Below the pieces are notes generated by a model. It did no database searches and was not told the origin of the DNA. It saw only the letters and a program-made list of their open reading frames with translations. From an uncultured virus (IMG/VR IMGVR_UViG_3300020045_010788) (taxonomy: Duplodnaviria; Heunggongvirae; Uroviricota; Caudoviricetes): a stretch of DNA of 64,000 nt. The stretch lies in IMG/VR virus record IMGVR_UViG_3300020045_010788, one strand, 5' to 3'. The position numbers were made by a program, and so were the translations under genes. This document shows, in pieces, positions 3,587 through 38,244 of this stretch (positions are counted from its first letter, which is position 1; each line of letters opens with the position of its first letter).

Positions 3587-3610
3587 TAATCATTTTAAAA
3601 ACAATAAATT

Positions 3611-3985: not shown

Positions 3986-3994
3986 TATTGGGGC

Positions 3995-4119
3995 TAACGT
4001 TAAAAATATGAAATGTACGGGATTAAAAGCGGTATCCTCCTATCCCGATACACAAAAGATAATTAAGGTAGTACCGTTCAAATACGCACTGACACCCGTA
4101 TATTTTATATTTAGTGTTA
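3995..4119. repeat. attC-like imperfect hairpin site 1 (125 bp)
   Basis: TAAC 3995 ... GTTA 4119; arms AAATATGAAATGTACGGG 4004-21 / CCCGTATATTTTATATTT 4095-4112. Confidence 0.7.
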
Positions 4120-4140
4120 TAGGGCGTTTATTTTTATCAC

Positions 4141-4362
4141 ATGGAAACTTTTAGATGGCATACAACAGAATATCATCCGACAAACGAAACAACAATGCAG
4201 GATTATTTGGAAAATCATTTACCACAATGCTTTGATGTGATATTTGAAGATGGTACTTATGCGGAAATTCAAAACAAAAATACGGGGCAAATATTCGGAG
4301 TTAATGCTTCGGGCGATGGCGATTCTTTCAACCACAAAGTTGAGTTCGAGTTTGTTCATTAA
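4141..4362 (+). CDS. hypothetical protein (cassette gene)
   Basis: 73 aa, flanked by GTTATAGGGCGTTTA and TAAATGCCCTATAAC. Confidence 0.6.
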   Translation: METFRWHTTEYHPTNETTMQDYLENHLPQCFDVIFEDGTYAEIQNKNTGQIFGVNASGDGDSFNHKVEFEFVH

Positions 4363-4446
4363 ATGCCCTATAACGGCACAGGTATGGGCATGTGCGCCAG
4401 CCGGGACTAACCACTAAACCTAAAACTAACTATGGAAATAAACTAC

Positions 4447-17569: not shown

Positions 17570-19903
17570 TCAATTTTCCTGTTGTGCAACATTTTGTTGA
17601 ATATTTTGTTCAGGCGATCCTATTTCTAGTTTTTTATTTAAGACCGCATGCCTGTCCCTCAAATCCCATTCAGTCGTTAATTCCTCTTTCATTTTAGCTA
17701 TTTCGGCTTTCATGGCCTCCATTTGGGCATCAAGTTTCGCTTGTACTAATTCCTGATTCTTTTTAGATTCCATTTCTTGAGATTGCTGTGCTTTTTGCTG
17801 TGCTTTATTTTTTGCTTTTCGTATTTCATTTCGAACCAAAAACGCAATTTGTCTTAAATTATACCCATTAGATTTCATTTGGGTAATCATAATAGCCGTA
17901 TCTATTTCTAAAGCAACAACACCATCACGCCCCATTTGTAATGCGATTTCAATTTGTCTATTTAGTGTTTGCCAGTCATCTTCTGTTGGCCTTCTTTCTA
18001 TTTGAACACCATAATCTGCGTGCTGTCCAGCTATTTTTAATGCCTCAATCTTTGCGAACCCTATTACTTTTGCGTATGACTGTCTGGATTCTTCATCCAT
18101 TTTCATTAAAACATTTATACGCTTTGTAATATGGTTAGCCGCATCTAGCTTAACGTTCATTACCAAATCAATTATAGGCCTTATGACTGTAGAACTTGTT
18201 GACATAGCAACTTCCGTTACGGCCTTTCCGGTTCTTGGCGCTGGCATTCCTCCTAATGCTACTGAGTTTATTCCAGTATAATATTCTATTTGTGCTTCAT
18301 GGAACTGAAAAACCTCGATTAATTGTCGAAGAACCCCCTCCATTTCAGATGGAATTGGAACGACCGGACTCGATGCCATTGAATTTATTGATCCATCAAA
18401 CCTAGTCCTTACGAAAGGCAATATACCAGTAGTGAATCCTATTTGTAAAGCTTTTAATGGGGATAAATCCTCTCCGCCAGCTAATGACATATTATCCAAC
18501 ATCGTCATATCAACGGCATACCCCATAACTCTTAATTGGGCTATTGCATTCTGAAACTTAAACCACGTTAGGTTTAGCATATCAATATGAGGTATAAGTA
18601 CTTTAGTTAAAGGCATTGTATTTAACCTGCGAACAATTACCCCTAATTCCGCTGGCTGTTCCTGGCATTGGTCTAATCCTGATTCGTATAAAATATCCGT
18701 ACCTATTATCCAATTAGCAATATATCTCCGCTGTTTAGTAATTATATTTACATCTTCGCCTTCATTAGCAGTATAATCAAGTCCAACGGATTGATATTTT
18801 CTTCCTTGTATAGTTTGCAGTATTACTTTTTTTTCTGAATCAAAATCAATCCAAATAGTATGAAGTACTGGAACCCTAAAATCATCATACAGCCATGTAT
18901 TTGATTTATAATTATTATAATAATCCCAATCTGCAAGACTAGGGTTATTATATACTCCACAAAATTGTTTTGCTGATTTAGCTAAGTCGTCCTCTTTTAT
19001 TCCTTTTGTCCGTAAAGAACCAATATTTTCCCATTTTAGCCTAAACGCATACTGAGCCTTTTTATATCCAGTCGTATTATCATACTGTATTCCAAATGTT
19101 TTAGGATCAGGGTCAGTATATTCTAATTTCATTTTACATGTGGCCTTATCATAATAAGGCCACAATGCAATAACGCCTATGTCAATAGCATCATTAATTA
19201 GCTTTTGCTTTATGTCAGGATTCCAATCTGAAATATCAAATGTATGCTGTATAGTTTCTTCTATTGCGGTTTCATGCACTAATTTAAACCCCCCTGCATT
19301 CTCATATTGTTCTAAGTCTAAATCGTTTTCTGGGATGAACTCCGGCTCCATATATGGAATATTTGCTAGAGCAGAAATTTCTTGTATCCTATCTCCGAAC
19401 ATTTTGTGAACCCATGTCATATATTTCATCTGGTTACGCTCGGCTCCACTTCGTTCATCTATAGCCCTACACCTTATATCATCATCAGCGTTATCCCACA
19501 TGCCATGGAAGCTATTTTTAATCTTTGGCATTATACTTAGGACTTCCCAATTAACATTCATCCACCCTTCACGCGAATCCTCTCTGCTATCATTTGCTTT
19601 ATCCCTGGTATCATATTGGGTTTGCCTAGCTGAACTTCCATCTATATCGGGGAGTAATCGTTTTTTATAAACATCAACCGGCTGTGTCCCATTGCCATAC
19701 ATTCTATTTCTATCAAATTCATCTGATATTGAAAAATTAAACCCGGTTCGACCCGTAAGATGTCTTGAGTAAATAGCTTCACATACTTTTAGAAAATAAT
19801 CGTTGTCTTTATTTTTAGTATATGGGTTAGGAAATGTATATTTATTGCTCCTATAGCTAGAATCTACAGCCGATGAAGTTAGAATTTTTTGAGCGTTGGG
19901 CAT
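17570..19903 (-). CDS. portal protein
   Basis: ~777 aa from MPNAQ; YGNGTQP..Y..NVNWEVLSIMPKI, YTGINSV..G and a C-terminal coiled coil; directly after terminase. Confidence 0.75.
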   Translation of the reverse strand: MPNAQKILTSSAVDSSYRSNKYTFPNPYTKNKDNDYFLKVCEAIYSRHLTGRTGFNFSISDEFDRNRMYGNGTQPVDVYKKRLLPDIDGSSARQTQYDTRDKANDSREDSREGWMNVNWEVLSIMPKIKNSFHGMWDNADDDIRCRAIDERSGAERNQMKYMTWVHKMFGDRIQEISALANIPYMEPEFIPENDLDLEQYENAGGFKLVHETAIEETIQHTFDISDWNPDIKQKLINDAIDIGVIALWPYYDKATCKMKLEYTDPDPKTFGIQYDNTTGYKKAQYAFRLKWENIGSLRTKGIKEDDLAKSAKQFCGVYNNPSLADWDYYNNYKSNTWLYDDFRVPVLHTIWIDFDSEKKVILQTIQGRKYQSVGLDYTANEGEDVNIITKQRRYIANWIIGTDILYESGLDQCQEQPAELGVIVRRLNTMPLTKVLIPHIDMLNLTWFKFQNAIAQLRVMGYAVDMTMLDNMSLAGGEDLSPLKALQIGFTTGILPFVRTRFDGSINSMASSPVVPIPSEMEGVLRQLIEVFQFHEAQIEYYTGINSVALGGMPAPRTGKAVTEVAMSTSSTVIRPIIDLVMNVKLDAANHITKRINVLMKMDEESRQSYAKVIGFAKIEALKIAGQHADYGVQIERRPTEDDWQTLNRQIEIALQMGRDGVVALEIDTAIMITQMKSNGYNLRQIAFLVRNEIRKAKNKAQQKAQQSQEMESKKNQELVQAKLDAQMEAMKAEIAKMKEELTTEWDLRDRHAVLNKKLEIGSPEQNIQQNVAQQEN

Positions 19904-19940
19904 TGCGAGTGTATTTGTATGCAAATATAGTAATATTTAA

Positions 19941-22274
19941 TTATCGGTGAAGACCTAATATAGCCCTTGATAATACAACTCTTTTATTTGCTTCATTTTG
20001 TGTTATTGGGGCGACCGTTTCCTGATCGCCAATTATACATCCCCCGCAAGCAACGAAAAGGTCAAAATCAGTTAAATACTCAACGCCTGGGATTTGTTTG
20101 CATTCCATTAAGTAATCATCATGATTTTCCACATGCCCACGAAGATCAATATAATTCTTATTCGCTTGAAATAACTTCTGTTTATCACGTGTAAAGAACC
20201 CAGGCTTGTCCTTTATTTTACCCGTTAATGGATCAATGGCGTAAGCTAGGTATCCTCCATATCCTCTTTGAAGAAAGTATTCATATAGCCTTGTAACATT
20301 TGTTTCAGGAAACATCATTGCACCTAATAATTGACACATCATAATCATGTCTTCACAATAATCATCAAGTATAGCGATCTTATTGTTATAAGTACAAATG
20401 AATCTATATGATTTACATTCAGTGATAGGGACATCTATTGGGTCTATCGTCATGTTTCTTCTCATTAATGCAGCACCAGCCCCATTAGAAAACCGACTTC
20501 TATCCCTCCTTACTTCGGCCTGAGTATTTGTTTTAAATTGAAAAGGGTCTCCACAAGCTATAATAGTTGAATTAACCGGGAACCATGACATCTTATATGG
20601 GTTCAATCCCTTTTCCGCTAATTGCCTATCGAAAACCTGCTGCTTAGATCGTTTATTCCTTTGACTGCTATGGGGAATTAATGAAAATTTAAACCGCCCC
20701 TCTGGGTTAGGAACCATTTCTACATCTGAGTCCTTATCATTGGGATCGGATCGCCTTAGATCATACATTTCACTAGGTCGCTCATTTTTAGGCAATGAAT
20801 TAATTTCGCCTAATCGCTTATCTATTATTTGAATATTAATACCAGTATCTCCTGAATCTATCAAGAAAAAGTCTGTAAGATCAATGGGATAAAGCTGTCT
20901 GTGTTCCCGATAAGATTTTAATGATTCTGGAGTACCCTGCTTTAATAAAAACTCTCGTGTAGATAAAATATGCTCTTTTGAGCCATACCCTCTATCAAAT
21001 CCAGCTTCATCTTGTTCCTCGGTTGGGTTGTCTATAATAGTATTACCATGTTTATCAATAAATCCCTCTAACCCATCATAAGCTGGGAAGATTAACCCAA
21101 AAAGCATGGATTGCGTTTGTCCCGTTTTTGAATTTCTTTGATAAAAATTACTCATTTCAAACAATCGCTTATATTGCATCCCTCCCTTTTCTTGCATGTC
21201 AGCAACAGTTGAGGGATGATACGCCCAACCAAAAATACTTGATCCATCTCCCGTTGAAATAGTATTTTTATTGACATTCCATCTATATATTATATCAATA
21301 TCCTTGCTTTTGCCACTTTCGTCAGATAAGTTTATGAGTTGTTTTAATCCATCAAATGCGGTAGCATCACCAGTATTAGCAAATGTTAGTTTAGTGCCAC
21401 CTAATGTTGGTTCAAACTTCCTATGAGTAAAGCTTAATTCACTTGGTCTTAAATCGCCCTCCCATTGTGGCCTAAAGAAAAAAGGCATATTCTCCCAGGC
21501 TGGCATTACCTTCATTTCAAAATGCTCAAAAGCATTGTCTTTCGTATAAGACTGTATGCCGCTCATCTTATCAGTGCTTTTTGTCCGAGATGTAACTTCA
21601 TACATAATACAAAGCCCTTGGTGCGTGTTTCCTCCACGTCTATTTTTTGGCTGAATAACGCCACCGCAAATACGAAAAGGCAATTCGACCATTTCATATT
21701 CACCATTTTCATTAGGAAGAGCTATTCCAGTTTCAGAATCAATATTTTTAAATGTCTCGCAAGTCGTAAACGTATATCTAAAAAATAAAAACTGCTTTCT
21801 ATCCCGATCCCTATAATCAGGCAATCCCTTCATCCCCCTTTTTTCATTTCCAACAGGCCAATAGTTTAAGTAAAACCAATGCCATCCATCTATATAAGTA
21901 GGAATCCCATTATTAAAAAACCAATACCCATTTAATCTATGCCACCATTGTTTCTTTATCCAAAGAATTTCTTTCTCATAGTAATCTAGGTTTGCCTCAA
22001 GCTCTCTCCAAATTTCATCTAGGATTAATTGCCCTGTCGCCCTAAAGTCTCTCTGCTCCCTATCTCTTGCCCTTAGCCTATCCCTAACTTCTTTTTCTAA
22101 AGACCTTAGTTTTTCTGGCATGACTTCTCTACGGAAGTATTGATCTTCTGGCTCTAATTTATACCCATCTATTAATGTAAATCTTGGAGGCTTTGGCAAT
22201 GATATTCGTATAGGGATTATTCCTTTTACCCCATCATTAACAATAAATGACCTATCCGCTTCGGCTCTTGTCAT
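19941..22274 (-). CDS. terL: terminase large subunit
   Basis: 777 aa; WHRLNGYWFFNNG.PTYIDGWHWFYLN, Walker-A-like KNRRGG.T, Walker B LSDESGK, nuclease ACGDPF. Confidence 0.85.
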   Translation of the reverse strand: MTRAEADRSFIVNDGVKGIIPIRISLPKPPRFTLIDGYKLEPEDQYFRREVMPEKLRSLEKEVRDRLRARDREQRDFRATGQLILDEIWRELEANLDYYEKEILWIKKQWWHRLNGYWFFNNGIPTYIDGWHWFYLNYWPVGNEKRGMKGLPDYRDRDRKQFLFFRYTFTTCETFKNIDSETGIALPNENGEYEMVELPFRICGGVIQPKNRRGGNTHQGLCIMYEVTSRTKSTDKMSGIQSYTKDNAFEHFEMKVMPAWENMPFFFRPQWEGDLRPSELSFTHRKFEPTLGGTKLTFANTGDATAFDGLKQLINLSDESGKSKDIDIIYRWNVNKNTISTGDGSSIFGWAYHPSTVADMQEKGGMQYKRLFEMSNFYQRNSKTGQTQSMLFGLIFPAYDGLEGFIDKHGNTIIDNPTEEQDEAGFDRGYGSKEHILSTREFLLKQGTPESLKSYREHRQLYPIDLTDFFLIDSGDTGINIQIIDKRLGEINSLPKNERPSEMYDLRRSDPNDKDSDVEMVPNPEGRFKFSLIPHSSQRNKRSKQQVFDRQLAEKGLNPYKMSWFPVNSTIIACGDPFQFKTNTQAEVRRDRSRFSNGAGAALMRRNMTIDPIDVPITECKSYRFICTYNNKIAILDDYCEDMIMMCQLLGAMMFPETNVTRLYEYFLQRGYGGYLAYAIDPLTGKIKDKPGFFTRDKQKLFQANKNYIDLRGHVENHDDYLMECKQIPGVEYLTDFDLFVACGGCIIGDQETVAPITQNEANKRVVLSRAILGLHR

Positions 22275-25728: not shown

Positions 25729-26646
25729 CTATACTAATTTACATCCAGTCCTACGTATTATATCATCCATTTTAGAATAATTATCAATTTCCTCTTGACT
25801 TAACATTTCATCAGGTGAATCAAACGTTGATGCATGCTCCATGTCCCAAATATATCTTGTTCCTCCATCCGGCACTTTTCCTGATTTATCCCCCATAAAA
25901 TTACTGGTACTATGCGCCCACTTATTTAAGTGTGGAGCATATCCTTTTGATTGCCAATATTGAAATGGGGCATGCCATTGATGAATGGCCATTGGCTGCA
26001 TAATCGTTATATCTTTTATTCCATTCTGCGATCTTGTGCCACAGAAAAACGGATCCTCCGATCCGTAATCAGCAAATAAAGGATAGCCATTTGGGAATAA
26101 TTCAAAAAATAATTCTTTCTTAAGACTTGAAGTCTGATGCGTTCCAAAATGCTGATTATCAACGTTATTCATCGTCCATGGATTATCGAATCCCTCTAAT
26201 GATTTGACATTATTTATGTCCGACTTCCAATCAACGTCATCAATTTTAAATTGCAGTTCCGGCGTTAAGTTATATGTCTTCATTGCACAAAAATTACGTC
26301 CGGCCATTGCGTTGTCGTACATTATTTGCAAAGCATCAGGAGGCAATATTGTTTCTCCGGTAGTTTCGGCCAATATTTCGCCTTGAGCTATTTTAAATGC
26401 TGTATTGAATCCAAATGTACATCCTCTCATACCATAGGGATGTTTCATGTGGATGTATGTAAAATTGGGCAAGTTGAATAATGGCTGAATAATTTCTAAG
26501 ACGTCATCTTTAGAATCATCATTAACGAGGATTATTTCATACTCATTAGTATCCATTGTTTGATTCATGTATGAATGGATTGATCTTTTCAGTAGATGAG
26601 AATTATTCCATATACATAGGCAAAGTGATATTTTTATATTACTCAT
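25729..26646 (-). CDS. glycosyltransferase family 2
   Basis: ISLCLCIWN..YEIILVNDDSKD..NTAFKIAQGEIL..YGSED..IHQWH. Confidence 0.8.
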   Translation of the reverse strand: MSNIKISLCLCIWNNSHLLKRSIHSYMNQTMDTNEYEIILVNDDSKDDVLEIIQPLFNLPNFTYIHMKHPYGMRGCTFGFNTAFKIAQGEILAETTGETILPPDALQIMYDNAMAGRNFCAMKTYNLTPELQFKIDDVDWKSDINNVKSLEGFDNPWTMNNVDNQHFGTHQTSSLKKELFFELFPNGYPLFADYGSEDPFFCGTRSQNGIKDITIMQPMAIHQWHAPFQYWQSKGYAPHLNKWAHSTSNFMGDKSGKVPDGGTRYIWDMEHASTFDSPDEMLSQEEIDNYSKMDDIIRRTGCKLV

Positions 26647-27188
26647 ACGTCTTTAACTTTTACACATTGAAAACACAACCACCAAGCGTTCATCTCATCG
26701 CCAGGTGAAACACCGGGACTGCCATTAAACGTTATATTATCAAATCCGTACTCTTTAAGTAAGACGGCAAGAGTATCGGTCGTATAGGTTACGTAGTGCT
26801 GTTGGTATGGATGGTCATGCCAACCGTATAAACAGCAAGTCGCATCATTCAAACTTAGTTCACCTTTTACATATCGAACCATAGTGGCATGCAGGTTCGG
26901 AGTTTGACCCTCAAATTTGCCTCCAATTTTCAGTAATCGGTTCCATTCGCCAAGAATAGTCTTCATTTCCCATGTAGGAATATGCTCTATGGTATCTCCT
27001 GACCACATAAAATCAGCACATTTGGGAGGTAATGGAACATGACCGAAATCACATACTACATCAATATTCTCATGAGCCATACCGTCAACCCTGATCCATT
27101 CTTCAAGCGGTCGTCTCATGTTATGTGCGCCTGACCCCATGTCAATCTTGACTTCTGGTAAGGTTAGCTTACGATCAAGTTCTGTCAT
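26643..27188 (-). CDS. class I SAM-dependent methyltransferase
   Basis: IDMGSG motif I; IEHI..EWNRLLKIGG...TPN. Confidence 0.8.
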   Translation of the reverse strand: MTELDRKLTLPEVKIDMGSGAHNMRRPLEEWIRVDGMAHENIDVVCDFGHVPLPPKCADFMWSGDTIEHIPTWEMKTILGEWNRLLKIGGKFEGQTPNLHATMVRYVKGELSLNDATCCLYGWHDHPYQQHYVTYTTDTLAVLLKEYGFDNITFNGSPGVSPGDEMNAWWLCFQCVKVKDV

Positions 27189-27194
27189 TTGTTT

Positions 27195-27485
27195 TTATAT
27201 ATAATTACCATTATCATCAACTTCCACGGTATCAAACCCAGAGGAAAGTTCCTTTAGGGTGCTTTCATCATTTAATCCTTTTATAGCTATATCTAATGTT
27301 TCTAACACTAACCCATTTGGCAATACAACGTTTTCAAATGACACCGCATATCCTCCTATTTTATTAGGTATAGCCCCGATTTGTTTAATAAATTTACCAT
27401 TAGCTATTTCTGCATTTTCAGCATCTATAAATCCGGGCAAGGTAATAACACATAACCCGTGCAATTCTACTTCAAACTTTTTCAT
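27195..27485 (-). CDS. hypothetical protein
   Basis: 96 aa within the GT operon. Confidence 0.5.
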   Translation of the reverse strand: MKKFEVELHGLCVITLPGFIDAENAEIANGKFIKQIGAIPNKIGGYAVSFENVVLPNGLVLETLDIAIKGLNDESTLKELSSGFDTVEVDDNGNYI

Positions 27486-28303
27486 ATTTTCTTCGAGATA
27501 TAATAATCAATACCATTTTCATTTATTTGTTCATACGATATTCCATTGTAGTAAGCACCTCTTTCTCCAAGCTTATATTGCGCTTGTATTTTTTCAAACT
27601 CATCCCAAATTTCAGATGCATGTTTTCTTTTCCATTCACTAAACTCGCTATCGCCTGAATCAATATGGTCAATATTTATATGAATCAAAAACACATTTTT
27701 ATATCCAACAAGTTTGACCCTTAATGACGAAAACGTATCATCAAATCCATATACTGTTGGCTGAAATAAATAGCCAATTTTATCTAATACGTGGGGCGAG
27801 TACATATTACACGTCCCCATTAAATGATTTACTTCTTCTATCACCATCCACCTTTCACCTGATTCATGGGCTAATGGAATTATTTTAGATTGCCAAATAT
27901 CTGTTCTTAACGGCCACTCGCCTAAATCTTTTCTTTTTAATCCTACTACCCCAACTGATTTATCTTTATCGAAAACATACTCCATGTCTTCAATCCAATT
28001 ATCCTGATGAATAACAACATCATTATCCATTTTTATGCAAAATTCACCAGGATTACGCAATTGCCATGCTTTATTTATAGCCCCAGCAGTCCCTAAATTT
28101 GATCCATTCTCTATTACTTGGGATATGATAGACTTATAATCACTGTATAGTTTATGGGTTAAATCACATGAACCATTATCTGATATAATAAGCCTATGTT
28201 TACTGAAATCAACTCTGTTTTTTAAAGAAATAAGTGTTTGCTCTGTAAAATCGGTTCTTTTATTATCGTCCGTATCATATACGGCCATAGAAATCATACT
28301 CAT
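27482..28303 (-). CDS. glycosyltransferase family 2 (paralog A)
   Basis: ISDNGSCD, NLGTAGAINKAW, KMDND DxD motif, YGFDD. Confidence 0.85.
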   Translation of the reverse strand: MSMISMAVYDTDDNKRTDFTEQTLISLKNRVDFSKHRLIISDNGSCDLTHKLYSDYKSIISQVIENGSNLGTAGAINKAWQLRNPGEFCIKMDNDVVIHQDNWIEDMEYVFDKDKSVGVVGLKRKDLGEWPLRTDIWQSKIIPLAHESGERWMVIEEVNHLMGTCNMYSPHVLDKIGYLFQPTVYGFDDTFSSLRVKLVGYKNVFLIHINIDHIDSGDSEFSEWKRKHASEIWDEFEKIQAQYKLGERGAYYNGISYEQINENGIDYYISKKI

Positions 28304-28311
28304 ATATTATA

Positions 28312-29115
28312 TTATTTTGATAAATAAAATCCGTTACTGTCTTTAATATATTTAATCCCGTTATAATATATACTTCTAACTCCAGTACGATATTCTTTTT
28401 GAATCTTTTCAAACATTTTCCAATTTTTTGTTGCATAATCAACCTTCCATTTACAAAAAACGTCACCACCAATATCAATATGGTCAATGTCAATATGGGG
28501 TAAAAATACGTTTTTAAATCCGGCGATCCTTACACGTAATGAGGAAAAACTGTCATCAAACCCATACAATGTATGTTGATATAAATAACCTATTTTATCA
28601 ATAATGGCTGGTGAATACATATTACACGTACCCATCATGTGGTTTACTTCTTCGACAATAATCCACTTTTCACCACGTTCATGTTTTAATGGAATTAACT
28701 TAGACTCATTTTCGCCTACTGGCCATTCAGTTAGATCGCGTCTTTTTAATCCTACTACGCCTATGGATTTGTCTTTAGTAAACACGTTTTCCATTTCATC
28801 AACCCAATTGTCATGGTTAACTACTACGTCGTTGTCCATCTTTATGCAAAAATGATTTTTATTCCTAAGCTTCCAAGCCTTATTAATAGCATTGGCTGTA
28901 CCAATATTATCTCCGTTAATAATTAGTCTCCAAATTAACCCCTTATATTTTTTATATAATAATTGGGTTTTATCGCATGAACCATTGTCTGAAATTACAA
29001 TCTTGTGTTTTTTCAAATCAACTCTTTCTGATAATGAAATAAGCGTCCTTTCAGTATAATCAGTTCTTTTATTTTGATCGGTATCGTATACCGCTAAAGC
29101 AATCAGTGTAGACAT
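28312..29115 (-). CDS. glycosyltransferase family 2 (paralog B)
   Basis: Same motifs as, and closely similar to, 27482-28303. Confidence 0.85.
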   Translation of the reverse strand: MSTLIALAVYDTDQNKRTDYTERTLISLSERVDLKKHKIVISDNGSCDKTQLLYKKYKGLIWRLIINGDNIGTANAINKAWKLRNKNHFCIKMDNDVVVNHDNWVDEMENVFTKDKSIGVVGLKRRDLTEWPVGENESKLIPLKHERGEKWIIVEEVNHMMGTCNMYSPAIIDKIGYLYQHTLYGFDDSFSSLRVRIAGFKNVFLPHIDIDHIDIGGDVFCKWKVDYATKNWKMFEKIQKEYRTGVRSIYYNGIKYIKDSNGFYLSK

Positions 29116-29890: not shown

Positions 29891-30862
29891 ATGATTTCAA
29901 TATTAGAAATTGAAGGCCACGACACCGATCCTTGTTCATTTTATAGAGGCAGAGAACCTCTCGCTCAAATAGCTAGAGACCCTAAATACCAAGTAACTCC
30001 AATGGTTGGTAATATAAGTTGGGCATGGATGAGTTTTTACGATATAGTTTTTCTTCAAAGGCCGGCCGATGATTACCAATTAAATATCATTAATCTAGCT
30101 AAATCAATGAATAAAAAGGTTTGGGTTGATTATGATGACGACCTTATTAATATTCCTGATACCCATCCCAAGGATTTACGGATTTACTATAATAGTAAAA
30201 AGCGGATCATCGAGCAAATAATATCACTCGCTGATGTTGTAACTGTTTCTACGGAAAACTTAAAAGAGAAAATATCTAAGCATAATAAAAATATAACGGT
30301 TATCCCGAATTGCCATAATGACTATATTTTCCCCTTAAAGTATAAGGCTAAGTTTACTAATAACAATAAGGTTTTCTGGAGGGGAAATAAAACGCACGAA
30401 CATGATATTTATGTTTACCGAGATGCAATTAACAGAGCGGTTAAAAAAAATAGGCAGTTTTATTTTTTAGGAGAGAATTTTATCTTCTTAGATAAAAACG
30501 AGAACGTCCATTACGAATCCACAATGTCTCTAATGGACTATTTTATGTATATCAAAAAATTAAATGCCTCGTTACTAGTTGTCCCGCTTGCTGAAAATGA
30601 ACTCAATTTTTCTAAAAGCAACATAAGCTGGCTCGAAGGGACTTATTCGGGATCAGCATGCATTATTCCTAACTTTGGTGATTTTGAAAATTGTCCGGGG
30701 CTAAAATATTCTAACGAAGACATGTTTGAGTATCTACTCAATAAATCCGAACGTGAAAACTTAGCCCCGTACAATAAAGATAGCTGGGAATATATTTGCG
30801 ACAACCTGCTCCTGAGTAATGCTAATAAAAAAAGAATAGAGATTATTGAGTCGTTAGCTTAA
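29891..30862 (+). CDS. GT-B fold (GT4-like) glycosyltransferase
   Basis: FYRGREP..DIVFLQR..VWVDYDDDL..ADVVTVSTENL..VIPN..VPLAENELNFSKSNISWLE. Confidence 0.75.
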   Translation: MISILEIEGHDTDPCSFYRGREPLAQIARDPKYQVTPMVGNISWAWMSFYDIVFLQRPADDYQLNIINLAKSMNKKVWVDYDDDLINIPDTHPKDLRIYYNSKKRIIEQIISLADVVTVSTENLKEKISKHNKNITVIPNCHNDYIFPLKYKAKFTNNNKVFWRGNKTHEHDIYVYRDAINRAVKKNRQFYFLGENFIFLDKNENVHYESTMSLMDYFMYIKKLNASLLVVPLAENELNFSKSNISWLEGTYSGSACIIPNFGDFENCPGLKYSNEDMFEYLLNKSERENLAPYNKDSWEYICDNLLLSNANKKRIEIIESLA

Positions 30863-30866
30863 AATT

Positions 30867-31340
30867 CTACGCCTTTTTATCTTCAACCTTAATGTTGTAC
30901 TTAGATTTAATCTCGGTTACAATTGCGTTTATATCGCCTAGACTAAACTCGTCCTGCCTTTCCATTACCGACTCGTATATTCGGATTATAGTCTCAGATA
31001 CAGGTTCATCTACGATCAATCCGGCCAATGTTAAGGCCGATTTAATGTACTTTACTTTTTGGTCTTGTGTCATTTTGTTTATTTTTTTATATTTAGAAAA
31101 ATTGTTTGACAGCCTTAATTGATTTAAAAATATTACAGACTCGCTTGAATAAAGGAGATTAATGTTTTTTAAGCATTCAGGAGGACCAAAATCTGTCGAT
31201 TTGTAATCTGTCCCATATTTGTTTTTGAAGTATTCATCAGTATGAATAGCGGGATGATACCCTACGCATATTTCATGAGTGATTTTATCTATCCAGCTCC
31301 CATCAGGCAATACCTTTTCAGTATCATCTACAAATATCAT
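30867..31340 (-). CDS. hypothetical protein
   Basis: 157 aa ORF. Confidence 0.45.
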   Translation of the reverse strand: MIFVDDTEKVLPDGSWIDKITHEICVGYHPAIHTDEYFKNKYGTDYKSTDFGPPECLKNINLLYSSESVIFLNQLRLSNNFSKYKKINKMTQDQKVKYIKSALTLAGLIVDEPVSETIIRIYESVMERQDEFSLGDINAIVTEIKSKYNIKVEDKKA

Positions 31341-31346
31341 TTAATT

Positions 31347-31559
31347 TTATTTTTTATCTATAAATGTTTTCTCAGTTAAATCTATACCATCTAAAGAGTT
31401 TATAAACTTATTTACGTTTATGCTTACGCTTGATTCATCGCACATAACCACAATATAACAATTTCCGTGTCCCCTGACCCTGAATGTTCTTATATTCATA
31501 GCCATTGGCTTATCCGATAATTGTTCTATTTCTGGAATAAAGTCTTTTATGTATTTCAT
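31347..31559 (-). CDS. hypothetical protein
   Basis: 70 aa, coupled. Confidence 0.45.
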   Translation of the reverse strand: MKYIKDFIPEIEQLSDKPMAMNIRTFRVRGHGNCYIVVMCDESSVSINVNKFINSLDGIDLTEKTFIDKK

Positions 31560-32035
31560 TTATTGTAGTCTTTAATCCTTATGTTTTCAACTGGGACATT
31601 GAACTTTTTAGCTATGTCATCCATCGTAATTTCATTTGTTACGCCTTTGGGATCACATAATTTCCATCCCTGCGCATCAAGCTCTGATTCAGCAACAATG
31701 TAGTCAAATTTATTGAAATCCGATTCAGTTGACATAAAATAACAACATCCAGCCGATCCTAATATTTTTAGCCTTGTTCCCTTAGGGCTTACGATAAAAT
31801 TTCCTTCTTTGTATTTCATAGTATTTAGTTTTAAAAAATCTTCTGATGACATGATACTTACTCCATAAATATAATTTACAATGCTAATAAAGCCAGTATT
31901 ATTTAGAGCAACCACCACACTTGGCCCCTCCCATGCATACCATTTAATCGACCAAGCATATCCCATTTTCTCAGCTTTAGATATTACGTTAGTGACATCC
32001 TGCTGACTATCACATTTAATATAATACTCTTTCAT
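31556..32035 (-). CDS. hypothetical protein, possibly 5'-truncated by the IS
   Basis: C-terminal EITMDDIAKKFNVPVENIRIK; becomes in frame with ATG 33402 once the IS is removed. Confidence 0.6.
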   Translation of the reverse strand: MKEYYIKCDSQQDVTNVISKAEKMGYAWSIKWYAWEGPSVVVALNNTGFISIVNYIYGVSIMSSEDFLKLNTMKYKEGNFIVSPKGTRLKILGSAGCCYFMSTESDFNKFDYIVAESELDAQGWKLCDPKGVTNEITMDDIAKKFNVPVENIRIKDYNK

Positions 32036-32052
32036 GGGTTCTTTTTTATTAA

Positions 32053-33301
32053 CTCATGTTACGCAGACATTTAAGTCTGAAATTATTGATATTTAGAATA
32101 CTATTTGCGAATAGTTGAAAATTAGGCAATTTTGCAATATGTTAAACTTTAATTGCTTAGTATATGAGCCAGTCGCAAATTATTGATCTGTATACAGATT
32201 ATCTGCTTTGTTCTTTTACAACAGCATCATCAACCGTAATGTCAAGAATGTTACAAAATTCGTTAAGCCATGACCAAATTACTCGTTTTTTATCTAAGCG
32301 GGACTTCACCGCCAAAGAATACTGGCTCGGTATAAAGCCAATAGTTCGTGAAATTGAAAATGACAATGGATTCATTATTGTTGATGATACCATTGAAGAG
32401 AAACCCTATACTGATGAGAACAATATTGTTTGCTATCATTACGATCACACTAAAGGTTATAGTATCAAAGGTATCAATATTGTCAATTTCATGTACTATG
32501 CCGATAATGTAAAGGATGATTTCTGTTTGCCTGTTGCTTTTGAAATTGTTTCAAAGACAGAGACATTTGTTGACCCAAAAACAAATAAACAAAAACGTAA
32601 AAGCGATACAACCAAGAATGAACTGCTTAGAAACCGGCTTAAAGTTCTAATCCAACAAAATCAAGTGAAATGCAAATACGTTTTGTTTGATATTTGGTTT
32701 TCCTCGAAGGAAAATATGGAATTCATTAAAATTGATCTTCAAAAAGATTTTGTTTGCGCTATCAAGGATAATCGACTTGTAGCCCTTTCTTATGATGATA
32801 AGCTAAAAGGTAAGTTTGTTAAAATATCGGACATGAATATAACCGCCGGGGAAACCCATAAGGTTTATTTGAAAGGTTTGGAATTCCCAGTAATACTAAC
32901 CAAACAAGTCTTTACAAACAAAGACCATTCAACCGGCGAATTATATCTTGTTACCAGCGATATTGAACAGAATTATCAACAGCTCACAAAAACCTATCAA
33001 AAACGATGGATAATTGAGCCTTATCATAAATCGCTCAAACAAAATGCAGCTTTGGAGAAATCACCAACAAAAACTCAAAGAACTCAATCGAATCATATCT
33101 TTTGTTCCGTATTAGCATATGTAAAGCTTGAAAAACTTCGAATATCAACCAATATGAATCATTTTGCACTAAAAAGTCAACTATATTTGACTGCATTAAA
33201 ATCTTGTTTTGTTGCAATAACAGCAATCAAAGAAAAACATGCAATTCAGTTATCATTGAACATCTAAATAAATTCAGACATTTTTGTCTGCGTAACATGA
33301 G
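32053..33301 (+). mobile_element. insertion sequence (1249 bp, IS701-like DDE)
   Basis: Terminal inverted repeats CTCATGTTACGCAGACA (17 bp perfect, ~29 bp imperfect); 7-bp direct repeat TTATTAA at 32046-52 and 33302-08. Confidence 0.9.
32164..33267 (+). CDS. tnp: DDE transposase (IS701-like)
   Basis: SHDQITRFL, IIVDDTIEEKPY, VLFDIWF, YQKRWIIEPYHKSLKQ catalytic motifs. Confidence 0.9.
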   Translation: MSQSQIIDLYTDYLLCSFTTASSTVMSRMLQNSLSHDQITRFLSKRDFTAKEYWLGIKPIVREIENDNGFIIVDDTIEEKPYTDENNIVCYHYDHTKGYSIKGINIVNFMYYADNVKDDFCLPVAFEIVSKTETFVDPKTNKQKRKSDTTKNELLRNRLKVLIQQNQVKCKYVLFDIWFSSKENMEFIKIDLQKDFVCAIKDNRLVALSYDDKLKGKFVKISDMNITAGETHKVYLKGLEFPVILTKQVFTNKDHSTGELYLVTSDIEQNYQQLTKTYQKRWIIEPYHKSLKQNAALEKSPTKTQRTQSNHIFCSVLAYVKLEKLRISTNMNHFALKSQLYLTALKSCFVAITAIKEKHAIQLSLNI

Positions 33302-33406
33302 TTATTAAGTAACGTTTCAACATAAACCCCGCCACCAAATCTTACGGATGTGGTTCTATATTTGGGATCAATAAAGTTTCTAATGTCAAAATTGGATTTC
33401 ATAATA

Positions 33407-33667
33407 TTATTTCCCTTCTGATAATTGATGTAAATCCCAAATAGCCTGCAATTCCAACCAATATTCAGGGATACTATCACCCAACGCCTTCGATATTCTA
33501 TGAGCCAGCACCGTTGTTATTCGTCTTCGGCCCTGTATAAGATCACAAAAATGGCTTTGGTACATTTTTATTCCCTTCGCAAACTTCTTATGAACGATAT
33601 TCCTTTTCCTCAATTCTTCTCTCAGGTAATCTCCTGGATGTTTAATCTTTGACATATATGATTTCAA
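33407..33667 (-). CDS. HigA-like HTH (XRE) protein
   Basis: HPGDYLREEL..FAKGI..LIQGRRRIT..A.RISKALG....WLELQ..WDL. Confidence 0.8.
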   Translation of the reverse strand: MKSYMSKIKHPGDYLREELRKRNIVHKKFAKGIKMYQSHFCDLIQGRRRITTVLAHRISKALGDSIPEYWLELQAIWDLHQLSEGK

Positions 33668-33725
33668 TAGGTTTATTTATTATCATACTGATAGTTGACT
33701 ATTGTGAATATTGCGTATATAAACG

Positions 33726-34388
33726 TTAACTGCAAGCAAAAGAAGCGTCCGTGCGTTCAAATTCGTAAACCCAAACAAAAGGGTTTTTATCCCATGAACC
33801 ATTTCCGTTAATTAAGTTCCATAATCCTTCGTATTTTCCACGATTTGAAACATTATATCCCGGATATAAATCAAGCGTTTCTACTCCCTCTGCTTTTGCA
33901 TCACTTTCACTAATATCATTGAGCCTTTCAATCTTTATGCCTTTAATTTTCAAAAAAAATCTACATGCTTCTTTAGGCATAAATATTGAAGGTTTCCAAT
34001 TACCAGTAGCTTTATTTTCGGTATCAGCTTTATAAAATACCATATTTGGAGGTAAAATTTGAAATGTTTCACGAACCCAAAGAATGTCACCAACTTTATA
34101 TTTGCATTTAATGGCTGTAATAATTTCAAATCTATCAGGATTCGTGCCTATTAACTTTTTTTGTATAAAGTCAAATCCTTTATAATGGTTGCACGGTTCA
34201 ATTACAGAGCCTTTTTTAATGTCAGGTTCAGGTTTAATTATTCGCCTTGTTTGTGTTTTTTCGCCTCTCAAAATAGCCTGTACCATAGGAGTAGAAAAAA
34301 GAATCGGTTTAAAATTGCCAGCAGTTAACACAGCATCATACGCCATGTTGGGCGCATCGGTAACTTGTAAGTTTTGTTCTCGTATCAT
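33726..34388 (-). CDS. ASCH/PUA-like phage protein (cassette gene)
   Basis: KPILFSTPMVQAILRGEKTQTRR, GDILWVRET, WKPSIFMPKEACR, ERLNDISESDAKAEG, WDKNPFVWVYEF. Confidence 0.75.
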   Translation of the reverse strand: MIREQNLQVTDAPNMAYDAVLTAGNFKPILFSTPMVQAILRGEKTQTRRIIKPEPDIKKGSVIEPCNHYKGFDFIQKKLIGTNPDRFEIITAIKCKYKVGDILWVRETFQILPPNMVFYKADTENKATGNWKPSIFMPKEACRFFLKIKGIKIERLNDISESDAKAEGVETLDLYPGYNVSNRGKYEGLWNLINGNGSWDKNPFVWVYEFERTDASFACS

Positions 34389-34451
34389 ATTTTAGTGTTT
34401 ATTGATAATTTTGTTCTTCGTAATCCAACACGGCGCATATGCGAACCGTTA
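34326..34451. repeat. attC-like imperfect hairpin site 2 (126 bp)
   Basis: TAAC..GTTA; arms GCAT(C)ATACGCCATGTTGG / CCAACACGGCGCATATGC with one extrahelical base. Confidence 0.75.
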
Positions 34452-34500
34452 GTACCAATGCAAGAACGCTACTTGCAACGTCCGTGCATTGGTTGTTAGT

Positions 34501-34824
34501 TTACTTGTATTTGATAGTTTTTAGGAACGAATACAATTCAGGTTGTTCAATTTTATTTTCATCAAAGTTTGCAAAGTTCATTCGTATAGTTGCTTCAATA
34601 GCAATTCTATCGTCTGCACTTGCTTTATTCCATTCATGGTGCAGTTTAATAAGTTCCTGTCGTTTGCCTTCAACATAGCTTTGAGTATTTTCAAATACTT
34701 CCCGTTGTGCATTTGCTTTTCGAACTCCCCAAAATCGTGTACCAAATATCTCAAATTCATTGGCTGCAAAAATCAAAGCAAATAAGCCAATAATTGAAGC
34801 GATTGTTACTAATACTATTCTCAT
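34501..34824 (-). CDS. membrane-anchored protein (cassette gene)
   Basis: N-terminal TM; NAQREVFENTQSYVEGK motif; paired with the adjacent lipoprotein. Confidence 0.65.
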   Translation of the reverse strand: MRIVLVTIASIIGLFALIFAANEFEIFGTRFWGVRKANAQREVFENTQSYVEGKRQELIKLHHEWNKASADDRIAIEATIRMNFANFDENKIEQPELYSFLKTIKYK

Positions 34825-34826
34825 GG

Positions 34827-35324
34827 TTATTGTAGTTTAAATGGTGAAACAAGTACTTTAGGCTCAATATAAACAGGGCGTGGTTCTTTTGTGTCTGGGT
34901 CAATCATAAGCAACCAAGTTCCATCGGCACTCGCTGGCATAAATAATCCATTTGGGTCTGCCTGTGGTAAATTATGATGAACACTTGAAGCTGTTGATTG
35001 ATATATGTCAACTTCGGGGTTCGTGTATTGCGTTGCATAAGGCAAGCCATACCCAATACATTTGCCAATGAATACAGGCTTACCAGTCATTTCAGCCACT
35101 ATATAAGCATAGCAAACTAAGTTTTCTTGGTCTCTAAGCTCATAAATCATTTTCATTAATTTCCGCTCTTGAAAATTCTTTATTGCTGGCATTCCTGCCT
35201 GTCTGTTTGCCTCTTGCATAAGTTGTTCTTGTTTTTGTCCAAGTTCTCTATTGGAATTTGGCTGTTGTTCACAACTCGAAAGCAGTAATAAAACTGCAAC
35301 TACACTAAAAATCATTTTTTTCAT
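34827..35324 (-). CDS. lipoprotein (cassette gene)
   Basis: Lipobox LLLSSC; GKCIGYGLPYATQYTNP..PQADPNGLF motif. Confidence 0.75.
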   Translation of the reverse strand: MKKMIFSVVAVLLLLSSCEQQPNSNRELGQKQEQLMQEANRQAGMPAIKNFQERKLMKMIYELRDQENLVCYAYIVAEMTGKPVFIGKCIGYGLPYATQYTNPEVDIYQSTASSVHHNLPQADPNGLFMPASADGTWLLMIDPDTKEPRPVYIEPKVLVSPFKLQ

Positions 35325-35380
35325 TTTCTTTTGTTTTAAATTGTTAATATATAAGTAATTAAATAAAAATGCACTGGTAC

Positions 35381-35506
35381 TAACACCCGCTCATACGTAA
35401 TGCGGGTTTATTACTAAATTCGAGCATACTGCCTCGCTCGTAGGCTTTGCGTAGTTTGATAGTGTGTAGCACGTAATCCCGCACTGAAATATAGCGTCAA
35501 ACGTTA
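35381..35506. repeat. attC-like imperfect hairpin site 3 (126 bp)
   Basis: TAAC..GTTA; arms CGCT(C)ATACGTAATGCGGG / CCCGCACTGAAATATAGCG. Confidence 0.7.
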
Positions 35507-36833
35507 AGTGTAAGCAGAGAAACACCCCTGCCTACACTTGTACTTTTACTGGATTTCAGAAGCCGACATGTAACAAGTATTTGTTGTTACATGTGTATTT
35601 AATACGTTTCCAGTTGTCATTGCCCCAAATACTAAATTATTATCTAAGCCTTTTGAAATCGGATTTGACCGAAAGTTCCCAGTTGAAAAACTTCCGTTTA
35701 TTAAAATCAAATCCGTTACTAAAAAGGGCGAACAGCAATTTGTAATTGGTCTAACTTATCAACATATTCCTCTGGTATTTCACGGCTTGCAGCCATAAAA
35801 GCTGCTTTTTCGTCATTTACCAATACAGTTTTTAAGTCAACTACAAGTTTTGCTGTTCATCGTATACATGCCTTTCTTGCCTTATTTCTTCTATGTCCGC
35901 ATTAGTCATAACATTATTATTTTCTATTAAATAAGCTATCGGTGTTTTATTTATACCCCAATCATTATTAAACCTACCAACAACAATAGATGAACAACCT
36001 TTTATTTTTATCCATCGCATCCAATAATTTTAATAACCGTAACTTATTACCCTCTGGCTCTATATTAAGTTCAACCCAACAACGAGCGGCCCAATATTCT
36101 TTGGTCTTGAATATATCCCCCCAACTCCTCCAAACGAATTGCCCTCTGGATCATCCATCTATGTATCCCACTCTAAATCATTTGTCATATAAAATTCTAC
36201 ATCCCCTGTATGCCTTTGTGTCTCAAAATCCTTAAAACGCTCCGTTTTAATCCTTCCTCCATCCGCCCTATCTAATAGTATACATGGATATATATTTAAT
36301 CCCATAATCTTCTTATTTTGCCCCACAAACTTAATCCTTTTATTTTAAAATTACAAATAAAGTGTAATTATTAACCCTGCAATAGCGTGCCAGTATCATC
36401 CACTATTATGCAATCACCTTAATTTCACATAAATAAAAAAATAAAATATTATACACCCCAGCCCAAAATAAAAAATATACAACCCAATATGCTATTAGTC
36501 ATGCAAATACATTGAAATAAGGGTTAGTGGAGGGTTAGATGGGGACTTAGTATATCATAACAAGGGCAGCGTAACTGATATGGAAAGTGCTTTTTGCGAA
36601 CCCGCCCCCGGTCACTGGGCAAATGGCAACCGGTTAAGCTTTAAACTGGAATTGTGAAACAGTAATTGGGATTACGGGATAAACTGGAATAGAAAAGCCC
36701 ATCCTATTGGCGGTAAGCTGGGCAAGTAGCATATTATATATGATACTTATTTAGTGAATAATGTTTCATATTGAAAGTTAAACACGGTATTTGCTTTCGA
36801 TTACGCGAATCGTTCGGGAACCAAACTATCAAA

Positions 36834-37394
36834 TTAAAACTTTATCATATAGCCTTTATATGGAATGCCGTGATCACAATATGTCTTTTGTGCTAAAAAT
36901 AACATGGTTCTGCCTATCCCAAGAAAACCAGCAGCTTTCTGTACTGAGTTGATCTGCCTGAAAAGCTTACCGTTCTTATATAAACTTACCTTTTTGTATT
37001 TTGCGTTAGCCATCTTTATTTTAGTTTCTAACGAAGGAGACGGCCGTGTCTTACCCTTCCACCAGCAGCCCCTATTTCCCAACTTAAAAGACTTGCGCAC
37101 ATTATCCGCGTGAGTAATCCATTGCAGGTTGCTGTAATGATTATTGCCTTTGTTCTCGTCAATATGGTCTATTTCGTATTTTAAACCATCATTTGGGCAT
37201 GGTCCCAAATAAGTTAAGGCTACTAACCTATGGACTAATTTATGCCTACCATTTAGCGTATAAGTATAATAGCCCAATCTGGCCTTATTCGGCTTAATCC
37301 ACGCTTTTCTCTTAATATTGTATATTAATCCATTTGGGGTTATTTCGTAATTCTCGTAACCAGGAATAGGTCTTTTTTCTATTAGCATTTTCAT
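36834..37394 (-). CDS. HNH homing endonuclease (NUMOD4-HNH type)
   Basis: RPIPGYENYEIT..G; VHRLVA..IDHIDENKGNNHYSNLQWITHADN. Confidence 0.85.
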   Translation of the reverse strand: MKMLIEKRPIPGYENYEITPNGLIYNIKRKAWIKPNKARLGYYTYTLNGRHKLVHRLVALTYLGPCPNDGLKYEIDHIDENKGNNHYSNLQWITHADNVRKSFKLGNRGCWWKGKTRPSPSLETKIKMANAKYKKVSLYKNGKLFRQINSVQKAAGFLGIGRTMLFLAQKTYCDHGIPYKGYMIKF

Positions 37395-37514
37395 AATATT
37401 CAGTATTTATAAGGGCAAAGATAGGCAAAGTATTTAACATGAGGTAGTTTTCATACTATAAATTATAGGCTATACATAAACAATCATCACACTGTAATAC
37501 TGCATATTAGTACC

Positions 37515-37566
37515 TTATTTAGAATGAATGTAAATAAGGAATATTATTTAGAATTAGTCTAAATAA
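37515..37566. promoter_or_regulatory. two tandem palindromic operator-like boxes
   Basis: TTATTTAGAATGAATGTAAATAA (37515-37) and the perfect 9-5-9 palindrome TTATTTAGA-ATTAG-TCTAAATAA (37544-66). Confidence 0.5.
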
Positions 37567-38244
37567 AAATAACGAGTGGGTGTTTTTGCAGAGTTGAAAA
37601 ACCAACTAAACCCCCTATAGTTAATTAAAAATGTTGGTATCGCCAACAATTTACATATTATTATCGTAATTATCAGTGGGTTAAATGTCCACCAAGTTAG
37701 TGTAGATTAGAGTTAGTTGATATTATTGAGATTCTTAATGTACGGTAAATTGATTTAGATTCAATATATAGTATTTAATAGGATTTCGTAATGTCTATTA
37801 AATTAGTGTACATTAAATAAAAAAAAGACCACCTTTCGATGATCTTGTACCTACCAATCCAATGATTAGGCTTAAAGAACGTTTATTTATGAAATGTTAG
37901 CAGTCTTATTTAGAAAATATTTCCTGATCTTGGTAATATTATATACCTTCTGTTTCCGCCTCCAGTTTTTCAACTCTTTTCACATTTTACTTATAATATT
38001 CACAATTTCCACAATTTGAATCGTTGCACCTCATTATACACCTGGTTATATGTTCGGGCCTTTGACAGAACCTTACTTCTTTAGGCTCTATCGGGTAATA
38101 GCTATTATCTACATTTATCAAGCCGCCTGTTATATATTTCCTTTTCATTTGCTTACTAACTTATAACGTTTGCCTTCATGGGTTTTGATTCGTTTTCTTT
38201 TAAAGGTCTTTTCAATCTGCTTTTCTTTGGTTTCTTCTGGCATC

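Follow-up and report, generated by a model that had tools for sequence, protein, structure and literature searches.

The window analysed here, a stretch of 64,000 nucleotides from an uncultured tailed phage (IMG/VR record IMGVR_UViG_3300020045_010788), carries two elements of 126 nt, referred to below as sites E1 and E2, within an array of small genes on the minus strand (array 2; Table 1). We consider it probable that E1 and E2 are structure-specific recombination sites belonging to an integron-like cassette system common to the chromosomes and phages of Bacteroidota. A phage-adapted system for shuffling cassettes of accessory genes had been proposed in a first-pass annotation of this DNA, made from the sequence alone. 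Our analyses support this proposal, since none of the checks on the existence of a site family, on gene orientation or on exchange at the cassette boundaries spoke against it. The system is integron-like but it is not an IntI system, and the enzyme expected in the first-pass annotation, an IntI-like integrase of the host, has to be replaced with a recombinase of another type.

Site family and its fold

Direct reading confirmed that E1 and E2 are both 126 nt long, start with TAAC and end with GTTA. This pattern is uninformative by itself, with 35 matches at the spacing of the sites in the window versus 43 expected. Folding of both strands had been suggested as a check, but single-sequence DNA folds of either strand of E1 and E2 were no better than those of shuffled sequences (z values of −0.39 to +1.33), and the minimum-energy fold of E2 consisted of local hairpins instead of the long stem. 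The case for these sites therefore rests on their relatives.

A strict pattern derived from E1 and E2 identified three viral contigs with near-identical sites in other surroundings, one of which contained a third type of site 280 nt further along. A covariance model (R1) was built on six copies, the consensus fold of which has seven compensatory pairs. R1 detected three sites in the window (E1, E2 and site 1, which belongs to a second array, array 1), 10 sites in the first 4 kb and 14 across the 41 kb of a viral contig (G001), and 210 sites in 75 of 77 fetched genome loci, in which Bacteroidota predominated. The covariance search proposed in the first-pass annotation thus revealed a large family, which extends to the viral loci encoding recombinases described below. 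In an alignment of 15 sites, 95.6% of the cells were paired and 16 of the 23 pairs were compensatory, a result reached by none of 500 shuffles, and the proportion of paired cells was 98.0% in an alignment of 86 chromosomal sites. Both alignments were fitted to R1; in a control in which the pairing partners were slid by one to three columns, only 30–52% of the cells were paired (30–48% for the 15-site set). The hairpin is thus established through covariation.

The consensus on the folding strand consists of TAACG, four to six unpaired bases, an 18-bp stem, a loop, the return arm, two unpaired bases and TGTTA, with TAACG at the start of 186 and TGTTA at the end of 179 of 226 sites. The loop measures 72–73 nt in 64 of 86 family sites and contains conserved positions, including CTnTCAA. 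The RRRY consensus found past GTTA in attC sites is not kept. The 126-nt element is extended by a basal stem, formed by pairing of the 11-nt segment that follows TGTTA with the one that precedes the next TAACG and including one more conserved G·T pair, so that the basal stem is about 16 bp long and the full unit, with its flanks, about 148 nt. The three sites of the window had been described as equal in length; this is correct for E1 and E2, whereas site 1 measures 125 nt, and equal site length is a property of the family.

Three G·T wobbles are conserved in 85, 77 and 84 of the 86 chromosomal sites. As these wobbles become A·C mismatches on the other strand, the fold is confined to one strand, and the folding strand was the more stable of the two in 162 of 203 sites (mean of 1.8 kcal/mol). 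E1, read on the minus strand, has TAACG, a 5-nt spacer, the 18-bp stem with a bulged G, a loop of about 72 nt and TGTTA, with a fold energy of −13.5 kcal/mol on this strand versus −9.5 kcal/mol on the plus strand. In the consensus structure, E1 and E2 each have a single unpaired C in the left arm on the plus strand, corresponding to a G on the minus strand, as originally noted. However, the suggestion that this extrahelical G sets the choice of strand does not apply to the family, in which a bulged base was found in only 6 of the 15 and 10 of the 86 aligned sites. The strand asymmetry is due instead to the three G·T wobbles described above and to the asymmetry of an internal loop, and the bulge of E1 and E2 is incidental.

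The bulge bears on a first alternative, in which the elements are ordinary attC sites and the phage arrays are clusters of attC sites lacking integrases (CALINs) that are serviced by a canonical IntI of the host. The two kinds of site share an architecture (AAC/GTT core, unpaired spacer, imperfect stem, folding of one strand and circularly permuted cassette ends), and the bulged G of E1 and E2 is on the folding strand, in the arm in which attC sites carry an extrahelical base. Nevertheless, the scarcity of bulged bases among the aligned sites argues against this alternative, as do gene orientation in the phage arrays and the features of the array-linked recombinase presented below, and we consider it unlikely.

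A search of Rfam at E values of up to 1 yielded only a chance match to a snoRNA. Two short motifs, TCATACG and CGTAATCC, were also tried as markers of sites and rejected, as they pointed to positions 43619 and 5367, neither of which holds a site.

Chromosomal arrays, cassette geometry and the recombinase

A scan of species-representative genomes with a looser family pattern gave at least 124 stretches, versus about 11 expected by chance according to our own estimate. Among the matches listed, nearly all were from Bacteroidota, with some from Ignavibacteria; the few matches in bins of metagenome-assembled genomes from other phyla may correspond to mis-binned phage contigs. In three chromosomes (G004–G006), for each of which 150 candidates were scored, we found at least 61, at least 31 and at least 103 sites, and one of the arrays spans positions ~1.96 to 2.33 Mb. 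The flanks were complementary at 8 or more of 11 positions in 82 of the 146 pairs of neighbouring sites, as compared with 1.15% of 20,000 random flank pairs, and 58 of the 94 pairs with gaps below 1.5 kb had a complementarity of at least 9/11. A cassette is therefore composed of a site, a flank, one or several genes and a second flank complementary to the first. Such complementarity is expected if the cassette circularises, its two flanks then completing the basal stem of its own site.

Sites were co-oriented in every multi-site genome locus. Of the 12 cassettes of the viral loci and the window, 11 carried genes sense to the folding strand, none carried antisense genes and one was unclear; orientation was thus not random, in agreement with the location of the genes on the bottom strand noted in the first-pass annotation. 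The 105 cassettes of the genome loci comprised 36 with sense genes, 61 with antisense genes and 8 unclear cases, and the genome loci with sense genes throughout resemble phage contigs. Site logos were identical in the two orientation classes. The strand that carries the wobbles and the structure does not change with the direction of the genes, indicating that they are a property of the DNA rather than of an mRNA.

This observation weighs against a second alternative, according to which the sites are regulatory cassettes (a promoter or a structured 5′ leader) shuffled by homologous recombination, like the promoter-stem-loops of T4-type phages. Several features of the phage arrays are in line with such a role: the site precedes the gene on the coding strand in all the phage cassettes of clear orientation, G·U-type wobbles are typical of RNA, the ASCH-like gene of array 2 begins within its site, and a site is conserved together with the start of its gene more strongly than the gene body (see below). 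However, structure, wobbles and loop motif keep to the same strand in chromosomal arrays in which most cassettes are antisense, homologous exchange would not yield complementary flanks around genes, the sites are tightly linked to a gene for a tyrosine recombinase, and no Rfam family was matched. We therefore regard the regulatory alternative as improbable, slightly more so than the attC alternative.

The only gene family recurrently found beside the arrays encodes a tyrosine recombinase (Phage_integrase and SAM_4 domains). Clustering by BLAST of 320 open reading frames (ORFs) flanking arrays recovered this recombinase at only four loci, and whole-genome and viral-contig searches were needed. 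The recombinase gene was located 1–4 kb beyond the 3′ end of the three arrays examined in G004 and G005 (3/3), and all 13 recombinase genes of G006 were in or next to arrays. Sites were present in 29 of 80 viral loci encoding relatives of the recombinase, and all 88 of these sites were on the same strand as the recombinase gene and upstream from it. The sequence TAAC-N3/4-ATATA occurred in about 9 of 17 such phage loci, 40–80 nt before the recombinase match and after the complementary flank of the last cassette.

The arrangement of these genes differed between genomes. In G004 and G005 (loci L125 and L126), the recombinase gene lies on the other strand from the array, at its 3′ end, and encodes proteins of 368–547 aa with an N-terminal extension. 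In G006, tandem genes of 287 aa lie on the 5′ side of the array, on the same strand, and in phage contigs the gene is at the 3′ end, again on the same strand. G006, from a member of the Bacteroidales, has five equal-scoring copies of a gene for a 289-aa Xer-like recombinase (G006:C4, positions 2102162, 2118760, 2164334, 3068458 and 4252966) inside or beside arrays, one of them 128 nt past a site. The recombinase gene of this genome may travel as a cassette or as a small mobile unit.

The best match of 13 array-linked proteins in NCBIfam was the XerA/integron-integrase model. On the integron-integrase model TIGR02249, the same proteins scored 89–207 bits, below the cut-off of 265 bits, and the matches skipped profile positions ~181–237, which correspond to the IntI-specific insertion; the same was true of the 13 genes of G006. 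The nearest solved structure is that of an archaeal XerA, and IntI4 could be aligned only in two pieces. Judging from these comparisons, the array-linked enzymes are Xer-like tyrosine recombinases without the IntI insertion, and it is this name that should take the place of the IntI-like integrase of the first-pass annotation. All these features also argue against servicing of the arrays by a canonical IntI.

Similarity breakpoints at the core and the arrays of the window

A metagenome scan with the strict pattern yielded 23 loci. E1-type sites, 94–97% identical to one another, were found in eight right-hand contexts (the window and loci L003, which is the contig of L188, L185, L187, L189, L197, L198 and L203), in all of which the left flank was common and the sequences diverged directly past GTT(A/G). 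The expectation that cargo is exchanged at these boundaries was thus borne out for E1, which with the start of its gene occurs in eight contexts that diverge at the GTT core. In blastn comparisons, a block comprising the E1-type site and ~89 nt from the start of the gene was 92–96% identical (window positions 34237–34451 versus L003, L185, L189, L197 and L198), whereas the body of the ASCH gene was merely 68–83% identical between those contigs. This difference suggests that either the ~30 codons proximal to the site have been homogenised or gene bodies have been swapped behind a common start encoded by the site. A second conserved block, at the far end of cassette 1, stops at positions 33719–33724, and the breakpoint was found in L197, L203 and L187; both ends of this cassette are therefore similarity breakpoints in other contigs. 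The E1-type cassette is internal to the array in L189 and L203 and the last one in the window and L197. E2-type copies, 86–91% identical, were found beside seven different left flanks, and the right flanks differed within a group sharing a left flank. In run X1, which covers 9% of the words of the window and for which contigs only were used, contig pieces ended at positions 33722–33724, 34329 and 35381.

A number of observations weigh against our interpretation of E1 and E2 as recombination sites. A small contig of run X1 joins an ASCH gene that is 96.6% identical to that of the window to a different site beyond the TAAC at 34329, so that site and gene can be separated at the other end of the site too. 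E2-type sites accompany seven different genes, which fits the model only on the assumption that site types undergo homogenisation, as they do in sedentary integrons. Any conserved element moved by homologous recombination also gives rise to sharp similarity boundaries. Complementarity was below 8/11 in 64 of the 146 neighbouring pairs; these pairs are mostly long-gapped, and intervening sites may have been missed or cassettes may have decayed. The genome loci were selected with a pattern derived from the family itself, and the position and strand of the recombinase gene relative to the array vary between chromosomes. Most homologues of the cargo genes lie outside cassettes: of the 47 ASCH loci only three had sites, as did none of the five lipoprotein loci, and cargo homologues were accordingly abandoned as a route to further cassettes. 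Finally, no recombinase was detected in the 64-kb window, either with Pfam on 54 ORFs or by tblastn and profile searches in six frames, and the arrays of the window are therefore orphans.

The features of the two arrays are listed in Table 1. Array 2 consists of two full sites and a terminal core; array 1 likewise has two sites and a terminal core, but one of its sites is degenerate. The cassette ends of array 2 match as previously described, with GTTAACTGCAAGCAA (33725–33739) pairing with TTGCCAGCAGTTAAC (34315–34329) at 13 of 15 positions around the ASCH-like gene, and GTTAGTACCAATGCA (34448–34462) with TGCACTGGTACTAAC (35370–35384) at 14 of 15 positions around the genes for the lipoprotein and the membrane protein. 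Each of these 15-mers is the sole match at two or fewer mismatches within 3 kb. The cargo is made up of phage genes, as had been stated, all three having matches to phage protein families.

Table 1. Location of the sites, cassettes and neighbouring genes in the window
Feature	Position	Strand	Details
Array 1 upstream cassette	3565–3994	+	TGTTA end of degenerate site, 3565–3569; flank, 3570–3580; ORF, 3611–3985; flank, 3984–3994
Site 1 (125 nt)	3995–4119	+ (folding strand)	Same family as E1 and E2; cmsearch 61.2 bits, E = 1.5e-12
Array 1 cassette	4120–4375	+	Flank, 4120–4130; ORF, 4141–4362 (73 aa); flank, 4360–4370; terminal core TAACG, 4371–4375
DDE transposase gene (367 aa)	32164–33267	+	DDE_5 and DDE_Tnp_1; within insertion sequence 32046–33308
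Small helix-turn-helix gene	33407–33667		Between the insertion sequence and the end of array 2
Array 2 end	33716–33728	−	Core TAAC, then GTTTATATA; simple site; full string TAACGTTTATATA
Cassette 1	33725–34451	−	E1; flank, 34315–34325; ASCH-like gene; flank, 33729–33739; shared core GTTA, 33725–33728
ASCH-like gene (phrog_874)	33726–34346	−	E = 1.9e-59; match from residue 27 of a 220-aa frame
Site E1 (126 nt)	34326–34451	−	Putative folding recombination site; cmsearch 130.8 bits, E = 1e-29
Cassette 2	34452–35506	−	E2; flank, 35370–35380; two genes; flank, 34452–34462
Local hairpin	34454–34493	−	ACCAATGCA ... TGCATTGGT; 3′ of the last gene of cassette 2; 4-mismatch partner at 34485
Small membrane-protein gene (phrog_26268)	34501–34824	−	E = 2e-07; hydrophobic N-terminus
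Lipoprotein-like gene (phrog_24725)	34827–35324	−	E = 4.4e-40
Site E2 (126 nt)	35381–35506	−	Putative site, same architecture as E1; cmsearch 116 bits, E = 4.5e-26
HNH endonuclease gene	36834–37394		Beyond the broken-frame stretch 35546–36330, on the other side from array 2

The likely start codon of the ASCH-like gene (34344–34346) is inside the 3′ arm of E1, and an ASCH homologue with 47% identity in L034 likewise starts within a site. The frame of this gene crosses the flank of the cassette and its stop codon, TAA (33726–33728), is part of the next core TAAC, so the core of a site can provide the end of a gene and not only its beginning. The N-terminus of the lipoprotein-like protein has a signal peptide and an LSSC lipobox-like motif. 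The local hairpin downstream from the genes of cassette 2 reuses the terminal flank of this cassette and is a possible terminator. The sequence at the end of array 2 resembles the TAAC-N3/4-ATATA found upstream from recombinase genes in other phage contigs, which is at best suggestive of an attI-like element, given that there were three occurrences of this pattern in the window versus 2.3 expected. At the outer end of array 2 (35507–35540), the flank of E2, AGTGTAAGCAG, is followed 10 nt on by its near-complement CTGCCTACACTT and then by GTAC, an arrangement suggestive of a cassette that is empty or has decayed, or of a terminator hairpin. In array 1, the flanks of the cassette downstream from site 1 are complementary at 10 of 11 positions, the lone mismatch being the conserved G·T position, and those of the upstream cassette at 9 of 11. 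The degenerate site was only weakly matched by the covariance model (E = 0.1), and ORF 3611–3985 matches phrog_4019 (E = 2.6e-16).

An insertion sequence is present about 420 nt past the end of array 2 (32046–33308) and is bordered by 54-nt inverted repeats that are 80% complementary. The proximity of a true insertion sequence, the occurrence of discrete units of fixed length in many contexts and the inverted 15-mers around each gene might point to a third alternative, in which the sites are miniature transposable elements, derived from insertion sequences or otherwise, or the cassettes are small transposons with 15-bp terminal inverted repeats. However, there is no visible target-site duplication at the ends, and the supposed inverted repeats vary from cassette to cassette except for GTTA. 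The strict co-orientation, regular spacing and assembly into arrays of up to hundreds of units are also difficult to reconcile with such elements, the stem covaries, unlike ends bound by a transposase, and the linked enzyme is a tyrosine recombinase rather than a transposase. We consider this alternative to be highly improbable.

The window is a portion of a tailed-phage genome, with genes for the portal protein (17570–19924) and the large terminase (19941–22274), and it also encodes a crAss-type muzzle domain (53294–56857), a primase-polymerase and an antirepressor. E1 and E2 are housed in a stretch of small genes, almost all on the minus strand, between 27 and 43 kb. A blastn search with window positions 31000–38000 found no match among 50,697 phage records. 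Two adjacent genes for family-2 glycosyltransferases (273 and 267 aa) occupy positions 27482–29115, where direct repeats with a period of 809 nt indicate a diverged tandem duplication of these genes, and further glycosyltransferase and methyltransferase genes are found at 25729–27188 and 29891–30862. On the other side of the array, a stretch of about 800 nt (35546–36330) has only short, broken frames on both strands and may correspond to decayed genes.

Relation to known systems and significance

Under the model that we favour, that of an integron-like recombination system, the site would fold when the DNA is single-stranded or by cruciform extrusion, and an Xer-like tyrosine recombinase, supplied by the host or by a co-infecting phage, would cut the core on the folded strand, excising and inserting cassettes much as IntI does at attC sites. 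Because phage genes are read in the sense of the folding strand, the site lies upstream from the gene and could supply a start codon, as appears to be the case for the ASCH-like gene. The two arrays of the window, with two cassettes each, would be orphan products of this cassette system.

The arrays resemble those of sedentary chromosomal integrons in consisting of co-oriented imperfect hairpins with an AAC/GTT core, the structure of which is kept while the sequence varies. Folding of a single strand, cassette ends circularly permuted at the crossover, numbers of cassettes ranging from tens to hundreds, the homogeneity of site types within a lineage and the presence of a tyrosine recombinase gene at the end of the array are further similarities. 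In phage contigs, the recombinase gene is on the folding strand, 3′ of the array, which is also where intI lies in integrons with respect to the attC bottom strand. However, the recombinase lacks the IntI-specific insertion, the basal stem is of about 16 bp rather than 7, the 18-bp stem encloses a fixed loop of about 72 nt with conserved positions, and the strand bias is due to three G·T wobbles and rarely to a bulge. Phage genes, furthermore, are sense to the folding strand, contrary to the integron rule, and some start in the site, whereas the predominantly antisense chromosomal cassettes are oriented as in integrons. Two defining features of integrons, the IntI domain and general extrahelical bases, are thus missing. 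The IntI domain has been taken as defining integrons (bioRxiv 10.1101/2022.02.06.479319; PMC8138268), and Bacteroidota are listed among the phyla bearing them (PMC8618304).

CALINs have been reported in virulent phages, including Polaribacter phage P12002L, by Qi, Rajabal, Ghaly, Tetu and Gillings (2023; PMC9892861), who treated 17 CALINs of at least two sites each as integron components and found one site of this phage (P12002L_attC2) to be recombined by IntI1; the terms "crAss", "Bacteroid" and "Flavobacter" are absent from the main text of that article. R1 detected short-loop relatives of our sites beside methyltransferase genes in P12002L (E = 2e-4 to 7e-4). The P12002L sites of the published study and the sites described here thus probably touch the same family, although our matches are not tied to attC1 or attC2. 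The prediction of sites of the same build as attC, and the recombination of one of them by IntI1, are in favour of the attC alternative. The arrays of the window are like the CALINs of lytic phages such as P12002L, in which attC-type sites are clustered but no integrase is present: each array has at least two consecutive sites and no integrase in its vicinity, and they would be CALINs provided that the sites are counted as attC-type.

The PeSL cassettes of T4-type phages carry a promoter and terminator-like stem-loops and are thought to act by homologous recombination. They share with our arrays the presence of short, structured repeats around small accessory genes, in regions of lytic phage genomes that are plastic, and a link to the shuffling of genes. 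By contrast, the cassettes described here have complementary ends and a recombinase family dedicated to them, and in chromosomal arrays their genes are found on the other strand. Their structure is not tied to gene direction as in PeSL cassettes but remains on one strand even where the genes run the opposite way. Xer recombinases act on a hairpin of single-stranded phage DNA in the integration of the CTX phage at dif, and movable gene modules are bounded by sites for Xer-type recombinases in the pdif modules of Acinetobacter plasmids. Those systems involve host XerC/D and dif-like sites of 28 bp, whereas the present sites are hairpins of about 126 nt in arrays with an Xer-like enzyme of their own. 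Our searches of the literature on integrons, attC sites and CALINs, Bacteroidota and crAss-like phages gave papers on integrons but no description of these sites, or of an Xer-like enzyme with cassette arrays, and a search on flavobacterial gene cassettes gave only surveys of resistance.

A broader proposal, the chances of which we consider to be evenly balanced, is that Bacteroidota and their phages, including crAss-like phages, harbour a second, undescribed integron-like system, with a small Xer-like enzyme devoid of the IntI domain, sites of about 148 nt with a fixed 72-nt loop and chromosomal arrays of more than 100 cassettes over hundreds of kb. Phages would carry mirror-image arrays, in which the site before the gene doubles as an expression and start-codon module, and protein N-termini could be joined to different gene bodies through recombination at the site. 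If this is true, orphan arrays would be serviced in trans during infection, and phage accessory genes and host cassettes would form a single exchange pool.

Integrons are the textbook device for gene capture and are defined by IntI; here, the same logic is found with a simpler recombinase and another site design, in a phylum in which integrons are considered rare and in lytic crAss-type phages. Should the system be active, it would account for the way in which such phages assemble their hypervariable accessory regions and would provide a route of gene flow between Bacteroidota chromosomes and phages. Surveys keyed to IntI would then overlook extensive reservoirs of cassettes, the arrays comprising at least 61–103 sites per genome, and the system would offer a tractable case of single-strand, structure-specific recombination by an Xer-like enzyme.

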